The position numbers were made by a program, and so were the translations under genes. Of a DNA stretch of 40,301 bases, positions 14,892 to 28,712 are shown in pieces (position 1 is the first letter of the stretch; every line of letters starts with the position of its first letter). The DNA is from a virus. The notes under the pieces are model-generated. The model searched no databases, was not told the DNA's origin, and saw only the letters and a program-made list of their open reading frames with translations. The stretch lies in UHGV virus genome UHGV-0127505. One strand, 5' to 3'.

Positions 14892-15308
14892 CGGTGTTTT
14901 TGGCAGCCAAGAACAGGGAGTCTCTGTTTGTCTGGCGGCTAAAGGTGATATGGAAATCGTGATGTCTTGGCCTAAAGTAGTTGCAACAGTTGGAGCGATT
15001 ATGGTGGTAGTAGTGATCATCGCACCACCCATTTGCAAGGGTTGACGACATTATTTATCCGGCGCTATATTCTGTGCGTTGCCGCAAAATCGGCACACGG
15101 GATTGGCGTCCCGGAATACTACTCAACGCATACCGCGTTAAGCGGTTTTTTTATGCGCTAAGCACGGCTACGCCCAAATTATGGTGGGCTGTGTGAGGGC
15201 TTCTTCGGGAGCGCCGGGTTTGAGTAGCCGGTTACGCCAACCTTGCACAGTTCACCACCAGTCGATTGGCGTCGTTGGTGGTGATGGTTAACCTGATGAG
15301 GTGATACT

Positions 15309-19392: not shown

Positions 19393-20475
19393 TTAGAACT
19401 GGTAAACCATACCTACAGCAACGATATCATCGGTAGCAACGCCAGATGCTTTCGTGAAATCGCTCTTATCAATCAGGTTGATTTTGTAGTCAACAAAAGT
19501 GGACATATTTTTGTTGAAGTAATAGGTTGCACCTACATCAACATATTCAACCAGGTCCTGATCACCCCAAACACCCAAGTCTTTTCCTTTAGAATGCAGG
19601 TAAGCAACGGATGGACGCAGGCCGAAGTCGAACTGATATTGTGCAACAGCTTCGAAGTTTTGTGCTTTGTTGGCAATATGGTTATTACCAAAAACAGTCA
19701 TGTTCTGGGTTTCAGAATAGGTGGTGGCCAGATAGATGTTGTTCGCATCATATTTCAGACCAGCTGCCCATACTTCAGCATTTTGACCAGATGCATTCAG
19801 GCTGTTGTTACCGTAGATAACCTGATTATTAGTGCGGTCAGATTTAGCATAGGTTGCACCTACACCGAATCCTTCATACTCATAAGTAGTGGAGAAACCG
19901 AAACCATCACCATTAGCTTCAGTTACGTCAGTGCGGTCATTTTTACCCTGATACTGAGCAGCAACGTTCAGACCATCAACCAGACCAAAGAAGTCATTGT
20001 TACGATAAGTTGCAACACCTGTGGTGCGACCAGTCATGAATACATCTGTTTGGGTCCAGGTATCGCCACCGAATTCTGGCAGAACGTCAGTCCACGCACC
20101 GATGTCGTATGCTACACCGTAGTTACGGCCGTAATCGATTGAGCCGTAGTCACCGAATTTCAGGCCTGCAAATGCAAGACGGGTTTTGTCTTTGGAGGAA
20201 CCTTGAGATTCAGCGCGGTTGCCTTTGAATTCATATTCCCACTGACCGAAACCAGTCAGTTGATCGTTGATTTGGGTTTCACCTTTGAAGCCAAGACGGG
20301 CATAAGTAGTATCACCATCATCTGCATCATTAGAGGAGAAGTAGTGCTTAGCATTAACTTTCCCGTACAGATCCAGCTTGTTACTGTCTTTATTATAAAT
20401 TTCAGCTGCCTGAGCAGACATCGCCATCAGTACTGATGCAGCTACAGCAGAAATTGCCACTGTTAATTTTTTCAT
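19393..20475 (-). CDS. nmpC: Phage-encoded outer-membrane porin (NmpC/Lc/OmpC family), lysogenic-conversion gene
   Basis: 360 aa with signal peptide, C-terminal VGMVYQF beta-barrel signature; located between Q and S as in DLP12. Confidence 0.9.
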
Positions 20476-20902
20476 CGTGAGCCCTTTTTTTTGAACTATT
20501 ATTAAAAAATGATGTCACTGCGCGATAAATATTCATCTAATCAATGTGATTATTTCAAGATGTAAGTTTTAGTTTCTCATTTAATTTGTGAAGTAGATCT
20601 CTATTTTTATCTGAACTTTTTCTATCGAAACCTATTTATGGCTCTTGGCTGAATAAAAATAAATCTATTAGCCAATTTATATTAACGGCTGTTATTTATA
20701 AGTGCTCTATAATTTGAAGGTTCAATTTAAACCGGCTAAAAATAACACTGGAAATTATTTTTTGGTTATTTGTTGAGATTTGCTTATGTATTTGTAGTGG
20801 TGTTTTCAATACTCGGTAGCATTCTCGCAAATATCATTTAGTGGTTTACGTACGTAAAAAATTGGTTATGCTGTTAAGAGTGGTTACTTCGTCACACAGC
20901 TT

Positions 20903-20936
20903 AAACCCGCCGTCGAGCGGGTTTTTCCATTTTTTG
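20903..20936 (+). terminator. Rho-independent terminator upstream of the lysis cassette (candidate tR')
   Basis: ACCCGC-cgtcga-GCGGGT followed by TTTTCCATTTTTT. Confidence 0.6.
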
Positions 20937-21047
20937 AGTCTCGATATTAGCTGATAACCCAATACCTGAGTTATTCACTGACTCCGAGTCTGTTACGTTT
21001 CGTAGTATTCCCTCAATTTACACCCGCTTTGTCTGCGAGGTGGGGTT

Positions 21048-22566: not shown

Positions 22567-23091
22567 ATGAATAATCATTCAGTTATTCCAGCCTTCGACT
22601 TCCGAGAAATGGTGCAAGCCAAAAACGGAGAGGTCGTTACCACATCCAGAAAAATTGCCAAGTACTTCGGCAAGCGACACGGTGATGTTCTCAGGAAAAT
22701 CGAGCAGGTTAAGGCTGATTGCTCGCGTGAGTTTAGCCAACGCAATTTTGCGTCGGCTGATTATATCGATGAGCAGGGCAAGGTTCGCCCGATGTACAGC
22801 CTGACGAAAGATGGCTGGATCATGGTTGTGATGGGGTTCACCGGGAAAGCTGCTGCGGCAATCAAGGAGAGCTATATCGCAGCATTCAACTGGATGGCAG
22901 AACAACTGAGCCGCCGCATGGCAATTGGCGAAGAAATGCAGCACCGCTACGCCATCAAAGAAACACGCTCAAAGCTGAAAGGTACGATCGGCAGTCGGTT
23001 AATGAACGAACGGAAGAAAGAGAAGCGTGTCCTGGCTGTCGAGCATGAATACATCTTGCAGGTGACACAGCCTGAACTGCTGATTAATTGA
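22567..23091 (+). CDS. rha: Rha-family phage regulatory protein
   Basis: 174 aa from MNNHSVIPAFDFREMVQAKNGEVVTTSRKIAKYFGKRHGDVLRKIEQV (Rha N-terminal domain). Confidence 0.7.
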   Translation: MNNHSVIPAFDFREMVQAKNGEVVTTSRKIAKYFGKRHGDVLRKIEQVKADCSREFSQRNFASADYIDEQGKVRPMYSLTKDGWIMVVMGFTGKAAAAIKESYIAAFNWMAEQLSRRMAIGEEMQHRYAIKETRSKLKGTIGSRLMNERKKEKRVLAVEHEYILQVTQPELLIN

Positions 23092-23394
23092 AGATGTCAT
23101 TACAAAGCCTATCTACGGGGGGGCTTGATAATGGCTTATACCCTGCACGGGATAACTTAACTGATATCCCTTTTAACGGATAAAGGTATTCAAGCCTGAC
23201 ACATCATGCGCTGTATCGTCGCCGTATTCCCGCATTAACCATGACCGTAGCCCGACGGGGAATTCCTTCTGCGTGAGTGTGCGGGAATAATCAAAAACGA
23301 TGCACACCGGGTTATTAACGCGTCAACTGAACGCGGGGTTGCTCTTCATGTCAGCCAGTCCGGTGCAGGGGTAGAAGAAACCGGACGTTATGGT

Positions 23395-23805
23395 TTAGTG
23401 TGGAAACATTTGTGATGTGCTCTGTATGTTTTCAGTAAAGAGTAATGAATTATCAAAGGTATAGTAATATCTTTTTTGTTCGTGGATATTTGTAACCCAC
23501 CGAAAAACTCCTGCTTTAGCAAGGTTTCTTCTGTATTCCTGAAATGTGATCTCTCTGGATTTCAGCTTATTAGAGGTCGTTTCTATAAGATGCCTATCCT
23601 TTGAAAATTTGACAGACACAATGTTTTTTAGGCCCTTTAATAACACTGTATTATCATTTTTTAATACAATATGAACATTCTCTGTGGCTAAATAGTAAAT
23701 GTAATGTGAGACATTGTGACGTTTTAGCTCAGAATAAAACCATTGATAGTTTAAATCGTTTCGAACTTTATCAAATATTTGTTTAAAAATGACTACCTGA
23801 TCCAT
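23395..23805 (-). CDS. DUF1398-family protein (YbcV/YdfO-like), AT-rich
   Basis: 136 aa from ATG 23805 with GGAAGG ribosome-binding site; family from recall. Confidence 0.6.
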
Positions 23806-23863
23806 AGATAAACCTTCCATGTGATATGAGGGGGGCGTAGTCTGCACGATTATCTAAATTGCT

Positions 23864-24097
23864 TCAATCTGGTCTGATCTGTTTTCTGAGCAATTCAGTA
23901 ATGTCACTCTTTTCTTTGTTTGCTTCAGGAGAAACTCTTTTTTCTGAGCACAGTCTCCGGCGGCAGGCTTCAATGACCCAGGCTGAGAAATTCCCGGACC
24001 CTTTTTGATCAAGAGCGATGTTAATTTGTTCAATCATTTGGTTAGGAAAGCGGATGTTGCGGGTTGTTGTTCTGCGGGTTCTGTTCTTCGTTGACAT
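23864..24097 (-). CDS. Small ribbon-helix-helix-like DNA-binding protein (YlcI/DUF3950-like)
   Basis: 77 aa; basic N-terminus then RNIRFPNQMIEQINIAL...NFSAWVIEACRRRL consistent with an RHH fold; directly upstream of the DUF1398 gene. Confidence 0.5.
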   Translation of the reverse strand: MSTKNRTRRTTTRNIRFPNQMIEQINIALDQKGSGNFSAWVIEACRRRLCSEKRVSPEANKEKSDITELLRKQIRPD

Positions 24098-24179
24098 GAG
24101 GTTGTCCCGTATTCAGTGTCGCTGATTTGTATTGTCTGAAGTTGTTTTTACGTTAAGTTGATGCAGATCAATTAATACG

Positions 24180-24480
24180 ATATCTGCGTCATAATTGATT
24201 ATTTGACGTGGTTTGATTGCGTAGATGCACGTTGTGACATGCAGATGATAATTATTATCATTTTACGGGTCCTTTCCGGCGATCCGGGCTGTTACGGGGC
24301 GGCGACCTCGCGGGTTTTCGCTATTTATGAAAATTTTCCGGTTTAAGGCATTTCCGTTCTTCTTCGTCGTAACTTAATGTTTTTATTTAAAATACCCCCT
24401 GAAAAGAAAGGAAACGACAGGTGCTGAAAACGAGCTTTTGGGCCTCTGTCGTTTCCTTTCTCTGTTTTTGGCCGTGGAAT
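24180..24480. other. cos: cos site (cosQ-cosN-cosB); 12-nt cohesive end GGGCGGCGACCT at 24297..24308
   Basis: Sequence GGGCGGCGACCTCGCGGGTTTTCGCTATTTATGAAAATTTTCCGGTTTAAGG reads as the lambda left end; nu1 follows. Confidence 0.95.
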
Positions 24481-24485
24481 GAACA

Positions 24486-25005
24486 ATGGAAGTCAACAAA
24501 AAGCAGCTGGCTGACATTTTCGGTGCGAGTATCCGTACCATTCAGAACTGGCAGGAACAGGGAATGCCCGTTCTGCGAGGCGGTGGCAAGGGTAATGAGG
24601 TGCTTTATGACTCTGCCGCCGTTATAAAATGGTATGCCGAAAGGGATGCTGAAATTGAGAACGAAAAGCTGCGCCGGGAGGTTGAAGAACTGCGGCAGGC
24701 CAGCGAGGCAGATCTCCAGCCAGGGACTATTGAGTACGAACGCCATCGACTTACGCGTGCGCAGGCCGACGCACAGGAACTGAAGAATGCCAGAGACTCC
24801 GCTGAAGTGGTGGAAACCGCATTCTGTACTTTCGTGCTGTCGCGGATCGCAGGTGAAATTGCCAGTATTCTCGACGGGATCCCCCTGTCGGTGCAGCGGC
24901 GTTTTCCGGAACTGGAAAACCGACATGTTGATTTCCTGAAACGGGATATCATCAAAGCCATGAACAAAGCAGCCGCGCTGGATGAACTGATACCGGGGTT
25001 GCTGA

Positions 25006-25031
<26 letters not shown>
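24486..25031 (+). CDS. nu1: Terminase small subunit Nu1
   Basis: 181 aa; reads as lambda Nu1. Confidence 0.97.

Positions 25032-28712
<3,681 letters not shown>

Follow-up and report, generated by a model that had tools for sequence, protein, structure and literature searches.

The two small genes beside the cos site of UHGV-0127505, a viral genome of 40,301 nucleotides that is called the window here in its whole length, correspond by sequence and arrangement to the ynfO–ydfO pair of the Qin prophage of Escherichia coli K-12. Both are well-known lambdoid-prophage genes, uncharacterised and found in most E. coli genomes; together they form one of the commonest prophage gene pairs of the species, annotated since the K-12 genome and with one structure solved. 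With a confidence slightly better than even, we read them as accessory genes that can be separated from each other and that run antisense to the late operon, YnfO being a ribbon-helix-helix (RHH) regulator and ydfO an optional cargo gene, and not as a toxin-antitoxin (TA) module. Lists of candidate TA or defence modules should leave the pair out. The locus itself is already known and ordinary, and the useful results are mainly negative. Two modest leads could make these y-ome genes testable, namely the RHH annotation of DUF3950, with an operator hypothesis for the satellites, and a difference in layout that involves lambdap79.

Genomic organization and gene identity

The pair is located between rha, on the lysis side, and the cos site, and the ORF map shows that both genes run opposite to the lysis and terminase genes (Table 1). 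A preliminary description of the window had placed two co-oriented genes between the Rha gene and cos, and both were recovered there as minus-strand ORFs. It had called them AT-rich, which is true of ydfO, with a GC content of 0.31, and not of ynfO, with 0.44; the whole window has 0.50 and the neighbouring genes 0.50–0.53. A composition unlike that of the flanks and an orientation against the surrounding operon, which are moron traits, were both found in ydfO/ynfO. The position had also been described as the one where lambda has bor. The comparison of layouts showed that rha does occupy the bor position, but lambda also carries homologues of both genes.

The cohesive-end 12-mer gggcggcgacct is the one known from the left end of lambda. 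In the DE3 record, the stretch homologous to the gggcggcgacct region of the window has a cos site annotated.

Of 5426 complete E. coli genomes, 3907 have a match to the 703-bp region of the pair, 2359 of them with a coverage of at least 80%, and the annotation of the matching region reads "YlcI/YnfO family protein" and "DUF1398 domain-containing protein". With such matches and annotation, ynfO and ydfO are therefore real genes and not chance ORFs.

Table 1. Features of the ynfO–ydfO locus and its surroundings (positions in the window)
Feature	Position	Strand	Basis
rha, phage regulatory protein Rha, lysis side	22567..23091	plus	Pfam Phage_pRha, E = 2.2e-28
ydfO-like gene, 136 aa, DUF1398	23805..23395	minus	ORF, Pfam and match to 2HH8
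ynfO–ydfO spacer, 58 nt	23806..23863	minus	sequence
PdhR-box-like AACAGATCAGACCAGAT, 3' end of ynfO	23867..23883	minus	sequence
ynfO-like gene, 77 aa, DUF3950 (YlcI/YnfO family)	24097..23864	minus	ORF, Pfam and NCBIfam
Upstream (promoter) region of ynfO, up to cos	24098..24296	minus	sequence
cosN cohesive-end 12-mer gggcggcgacct, followed by cosB and nu1	24297..24308	plus	sequence
nu1, terminase small subunit, divergent from ynfO across cos	24486..25031	plus	ORF; annotated as Nu1 in PhiR70_1
A (terminase)	25006..26931		ORF

The YnfO protein

YnfO belongs to the Pfam family DUF3950 (PF13132; 74.8 bits, cut-off 25) and to the NCBIfam family YlcI_YnfO_N (NF041551; 35.7 bits, cut-off 30). It matches phrog_949 of PHROGs with E = 7.9e-34, and it is 95–96% identical to annotated YlcI/YnfO proteins. 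In the protein, a basic arm at the N-terminus, MSTKNRTRRTTTRN, precedes a predicted beta-strand, IRF, and two helices, after which comes a variable tail of 23–27 aa at the C-terminus. Residues I15, R16, I25, F37, W40, V41 and C45 are invariant in an alignment of 16 cores, which were chosen to be clean and diverse. DUF3950 is a small family, with 112 representatives at 50% identity in 1.84 billion clusters, and many of these 112 are frameshifted reads of lambda control DNA.

The 77-aa protein had been described as RHH-like, and its predicted structure agrees with this. In the AlphaFold model (monomer, pLDDT 73.6), an extended segment around NIRFP is followed by two helices, and the N-terminal strand and both helices superpose on solved RHH domains. 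The structural neighbours of the model include the RHH antitoxins VapB12, MazE9 and CopA_SO. As modelled, then, YnfO adopts the RHH fold, and this assignment of DUF3950 to RHH at the level of the predicted fold is mildly new.

The profiles hold no RHH link. No RHH family of Pfam matched any of 28 DUF3950 family members at E ≤ 5, the DUF3950 profile found nothing among the PDB sequences, and the lone RHH trace in the YnfO sequence was a weak HicB-like match in PHROGs (E = 0.007). There is likewise no sequence-profile link from YnfO to the members of the MetJ/Arc RHH superfamily Arc and Mnt (phage P22 immI), AmrZ and CopG, and the lambdoid DUF3950 proteins further differ from these in that our operator search found none for them.

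YnfO would dimerise through the IRF beta-strand and read DNA with the resulting beta-ribbon and the basic, Arg/Thr-rich N-terminal arm. It would regulate transcription from specific sequences, most likely by repressing it.

The YdfO protein

The second gene had been described as DUF1398-like, encoding 136 aa, and this is confirmed by the match to Pfam DUF1398 (PF07166; 157.8 bits, cut-off 22, E = 1.5e-46) and by the similarity to the E. coli YdfO structure PDB 2HH8 (E = 5.1e-85), from which it differs at 4 of 135 aligned positions (97% identity). The remark that the protein has no established function also holds, both genes being still classed as uncharacterised. The longest ydfO ORF starts at GTG 23847 and would encode 150 aa, and ATG 23820 is the other upstream start. 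The start for 136 aa was preferred because a Shine-Dalgarno-like (SD-like) GGAAGG (23818..23813) lies 7 nt before ATG 23805.

The structure 2HH8 was determined by NMR, and YdfO was produced on its own for it, so the protein is probably not strongly toxic. The K-12 gene is strongly induced by an ionic liquid (PMC4077768). The statement that overexpression of YdfO protects against oxidative stress (PMC4077768) was set aside as a mix-up of gene names with YfdO: the work cited for it, Wang et al. 2010 (PMC3105296), reports YfdK/YfdO/YfdS of CPS-53 and never mentions ydfO. A confusion of this kind can propagate.

No toxin or defence family of Pfam, NCBIfam, PHROGs or PADLOC matched YnfO or YdfO. 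A similarity of YdfO to the parafibromin N-domain (phmmer, E = 0.005) vanished in the profile search and is therefore taken as chance, and a PADLOC match to Csx23 was below the threshold (E = 0.013) and was rejected. The profile search of genome contigs for DUF1398 was swamped by contaminating lambda DNA and gave no distant relatives; the distant paralogues considered below were taken from the plasmid collection.

Comparison with Qin, lambda and DLP12

In the Qin prophage, ynfO and ydfO are of the same two families as in the window, with the same order, orientation and spacing and 97% identity in YdfO, and the differences between the two pairs are allelic only. The surroundings differ: the Qin pair lies by a cos/terminase remnant, whereas that of the window, flanked by rha and by an intact cos-nu1-A, is part of a lambdoid prophage that appears complete.

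Phage lambda and the DLP12 prophage carry a DUF1398 gene, lambdap78/ybcV (78% amino acid identity), whose location next to cos and whose strand are those of the window gene. Lambda, together with lambda-like phages, has in addition a 64-aa YlcI-like ORF (DUF3950, 95% identical over the core), with place and strand again the same. Between the two genes, lambda and DLP12 hold a gene on the opposite strand, lambdap79/ybcW, which is absent from the window, and lambda has bor where the window has rha. The lambda name "orf-64" was considered for the YlcI-like ORF and discarded, as it denotes lambdap73, near the 6S RNA.

The homology with lambda falls into two blocks. The first (23374–23880, 83%) covers the DUF1398 gene, the 75 nt upstream of it and the final 17 nt of ynfO, and the second (23935–24400, 94%) covers ynfO codons 1–54, the upstream region and cos. 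Between the blocks (23881–23934), the window has 54 nt and lambda has 613 nt, which comprise ybcW/lambdap79 and a different YlcI tail. Since the homology breaks at 23881–23934, the YnfO tail is encoded by a 54-nt rearrangement junction and by DNA that in lambda lies upstream of p78. The 77-aa form of YnfO is thus a junction variant of the 64-aa form of lambda, a mildly new observation drawn from the alignment.

Mutants of lambda-vir that escape the defence system Vulcan are reported to lose lambdap79 through recombination with Qin and to stay viable (bioRxiv 10.64898/2026.09.04.749371), so that they most likely gain the layout found in the window. A defence system senses the lambdap79 cassette, the very difference between the layouts of Qin type and of lambda type, and this may explain why both circulate.

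Contigs with lambda p78 and ylcI, of 3.5 kb or 48.5 kb, were also found in "genomes" and "plasmids" of unrelated taxa (L008–L038, H109–H119 and many P-numbered matches), among them Kitasatospora, Flavobacterium, Cohnella, Staphylococcus, Synechocystis, a Nanosynbacter MAG and a Campylobacter "phage". These stray contigs are lambda spike-in or control DNA that contaminates public assemblies.

Spacer, promoters and upstream region

The ynfO–ydfO spacer includes a C6 run (about 23834..23829) and a -10-like GATAAT (23854..23849), both located by eye, as well as the SD-like sequence of ydfO. The terminator scan gave no terminator-like hairpin in this spacer. Co-transcription of the two genes is therefore possible, with no terminator between them, and it is not needed. 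The consensus promoter and terminator scan of the minus strand gave nothing usable, with no consensus sigma-70 site upstream of ynfO, and the candidate promoter of ydfO has a poor -35 region.

The PdhR-box-like AACAGATCAGACCAGAT at the 3' end of ynfO, recognised by eye, is one base off AAcaGGTcagACCAgaT, the SELEX site of the ynfO–ydfO interval in K-12 (PMC7660256). In that strain, PdhR SELEX sites were mapped at ynfO/ydfO and at ybcV/ybcW, and the ybcV mRNA was down 10-fold in a pdhR mutant (PMC7660256). The gene ydfO keeps the upstream region of lambda p78, where read-through from ylcI is impossible, and for this reason it probably has its own promoter, besides a possible read-through from ynfO. 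With its putative PdhR box, this promoter is possibly PdhR-dependent.

The region upstream of ynfO is 94% identical to the right end of lambda and contains interleaved inverted repeats (24159–24199) and a palindrome (24244–24261).

A fusion of YnfO and YdfO of 233 aa (P0121) is present in some assemblies. For it to be encoded, the ynfO stop codon TGA must become TGG and the C6 run of the spacer must be one C shorter (23828–23866), and it was treated as a variant or as a homopolymer sequencing artefact.

Distribution of the two families

Within the phage collection, 155 records have DUF3950 and 43 have DUF1398. Of the 80 viral contigs closest to the window YnfO, 78 have Nu1 upstream of the DUF3950 gene and 79 have DUF1398 directly downstream. 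A second set of 80 loci was selected for more distant DUF3950 proteins, and 63 of these have no DUF1398 within 5 kb. In the lambdoid phages of the distant set, DUF3950 is the lone antisense gene between the lysis genes and terS/terL, either beside a lambda-type Nu1/A, a 169-aa TerS variant or the HNH-TerS-TerL of Stx phages; of all neighbours of DUF3950 in lambdoid phages, nu1 is the one that varies least. In P4/PICI-like satellites, DUF3950 again stands alone and antisense, with bro/ant-alpA-int on one side and the primase operon on the other. Stand-alone DUF1398 paralogues, in turn, are located by bluR (ycgX), by yedEF in Klebsiella and by sopE2 in Salmonella.

The two genes are not obligate partners, and their alleles are also mixed. 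YnfO proteins of 99–100% identity occur with DUF1398 alleles of either 76 or 100%, and a YnfO allele of 96% identity occurs with the DUF1398 allele of 96%. There is, therefore, no co-variation between them.

As two separable accessory genes, then, YnfO would be the constant element of the locus, placed by the terminase genes in lambdoid phages and by the primase operon in P4/PICI-like satellites, and ydfO would be an optional AT-rich cargo gene, probably with a promoter of its own that is possibly PdhR-dependent.

Candidate operators in satellites

In the satellites, the region upstream of DUF3950 is a divergent promoter region common with the primase operon. About 30 distinct satellite promoters have 12-bp GTG-N6-CAC sites upstream of DUF3950, at about -105, -80 and -35. 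Over the full upstream regions, each locus has up to 6 matches, usually 2–5, against about 0.5 expected from shuffles; one of them, near -150, is no operator but the conserved sequence of a terminator loop. The central hexamers present 2.19 mismatches within a locus versus 3.42 between loci. They also track the tripeptide before the IRF strand, with 0.92 mismatches when the tripeptide is common versus 2.81. Arm/site pairs of this kind include YKG with TTTAAA, KKN with TGCGCA and TTKG with YAYAAA.

Such co-varying candidate operators beside satellite DUF3950 genes are what a repressor would be expected to have, and they suggest this function for the latter; the palindromic sites also lend indirect support to DNA binding by a dimer. 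The covariation of arm and site is confounded by common ancestry, and another protein could bind the sites. This operator hypothesis for satellite DUF3950 is mildly new.

GTG-N6-CAC sites are absent upstream of the lambdoid DUF3950 genes, that of the window included. A search for an operator common to the ynfO upstream regions of lambda type, L181 type and Stx type gave no shared 8-mers except one chance match. The lambda-type and Stx-type proteins have identical DNA-reading segments, yet their upstream regions have no common motif.

More tentatively, and at a level clearly below an even chance, DUF3950 may be a divergent branch of RHH repressors with exchangeable operators. It would act in satellites as the repressor of the primase operon through three GTG-N6-CAC sites, and in lambdoid phages as a regulator expressed from the prophage beside cos, with a regulon that includes the DUF1398 cargo.

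About 150 nt upstream of DUF3950, the contigs L120–L152 and L205 present a conserved terminator-like hairpin, GCCCGG...CCGGGC, followed by a T-rich run. Its loop keeps GTGTTAGCGCAC across the differing operator types. The hairpin implies that a further transcript of the plus strand, possibly a small RNA, ends just upstream of the DUF3950 promoter.

In Pasteurella phage Pmp7 (L200, a 10.7-kb satellite-like element with int, primase and terS/terL), a weak DUF3950-like match is located at 4853–5011 (E = 1e-4). It was too weak to be used, and it is antisense to a CDS annotated as "transcriptional repressor".

Alternative interpretations

The preliminary description had compared the arrangement to a small regulator-effector or TA-like module. 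The first comparison stands as far as the RHH fold of YnfO goes, and a looser relation, that of a regulator with co-transcribed cargo, may hold. In its strict form, as a dedicated operon with autorepression by YnfO and with the co-transcribed ydfO as a regulated, non-toxic effector, this interpretation seems to us rather unlikely. The genes are co-oriented across a short gap of 58 nt without a terminator, YnfO has the predicted fold of a DNA-binding protein, and the 77-aa tail variant adjoins DUF1398 in 96 of 97 loci (79/80 close and 17/17 further ones), an adjacency that simple linkage could explain as well as a dedicated partnership. However, most carriers of the same RHH core have no DUF1398, and in lambda and DLP12 the pair is separated by the opposite-strand gene. 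Moreover, ydfO keeps a p78-type upstream region, with the -10-like GATAAT and the PdhR-like box, and no operator-like motif upstream of ynfO is common to the lambdoid classes.

It is improbable, in our view, that YnfO acts at the genome end, by binding near cos or the terminase promoter and modulating packaging or late read-through, with ydfO as an unrelated passenger. The position divergent from terS, at the junction of lysis and packaging genes, is kept with three terminase types, and at the C-terminus of two family members, P0305 and P0331, there is a domain with a match to the N-terminal part of Terminase_2 (TerS; best E = 1.6e-11). No P0331-like fusion was found in the viral contigs. The gene of P0305 (L205, 4714–5103) is located between int-alpA and the primase operon of a satellite-like contig, and the satellite genes in general, this fusion included, adjoin the primase operon and not a terminase, which speaks against such a role. 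The cos elements of lambda, besides, were defined without a gene of the ynfO type, and cosmids are packaged with cos alone. Position by itself is weak evidence, because this junction is a hot-spot of accessory genes (bor, rha, kilA-N).

We regard as equally improbable that ydfO is a fitness, exclusion or anti-defence factor expressed from the prophage, a moron like bor, with ynfO unrelated to its action. Like lambda bor and other morons of the lysis/cos junction, the pair is antisense to the late operon, optional, mosaic and dispensable for lytic growth, and ydfO is AT-rich. Plating was unaffected by a CRISPRi knock-down of the homologous lambdap78 (PMC10695390), which is thus dispensable for lytic growth. 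The stress induction of ydfO and the sensing of the neighbouring cassette gene, lambdap79, by a defence system also fit such a factor. On the other hand, ydfO matches no defence or anti-defence family and has no phenotype on record, the quoted oxidative-stress effect belonging to YfdO, and the pair, in contrast to bor and other morons, has no signal peptide or lipobox function on record.

The TA-like comparison did not survive, and a type II system, with YdfO as a toxin neutralised by the C-terminal tail of YnfO and YnfO also autoregulating the operon, is very improbable. The order and sizes are the classic ones, with a small, predicted DNA-binding RHH gene upstream of a larger co-oriented gene, as in VapBC, MazEF9, ParDE and CopA_SO/ParE_SO; RHH antitoxins are among the structural neighbours of YnfO, which also has the HicB-like match, and its tail is variable and probably disordered. 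Unlike in those systems, the partner is no known toxin, and it matches no toxin family in any of the four collections searched. The association is facultative both ways, with chromosomal DUF1398 genes that have no adjacent RHH gene, the split by ybcW in lambda and DLP12, and DUF3950 genes that are mostly orphans. The tail is a junction product that is neither conserved nor co-varying with the DUF1398 alleles, as a toxin-binding region would be, and YdfO was produced alone for 2HH8. With the loose distribution, the junction tail and no toxin match, the features that define a TA system are therefore gone, the gene order aside.

Other features of the window

The gap between rha and ydfO (23092–23394, about 300 nt) contains a 44-aa minus-strand ORF (23173–23307), to which the phage PhiR70_1 record gives the annotation hypothetical protein. 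The region 20500–20950, immediately upstream of the lysis genes, is very AT-rich (GC content 0.27–0.32), and a minus-strand ORF of 360 aa beside it (19393..20475) corresponds to the OmpD/NmpC-type porin gene annotated in PhiR70_1. Rfam identified the Hfq-binding RNA isrK at 15080–15152 on the plus strand (60.7 bits), directly followed by a C4 antisense RNA at 15177–15262 (72.7 bits), an antisense immunity RNA of the P1/P7 type inside a lambdoid prophage.
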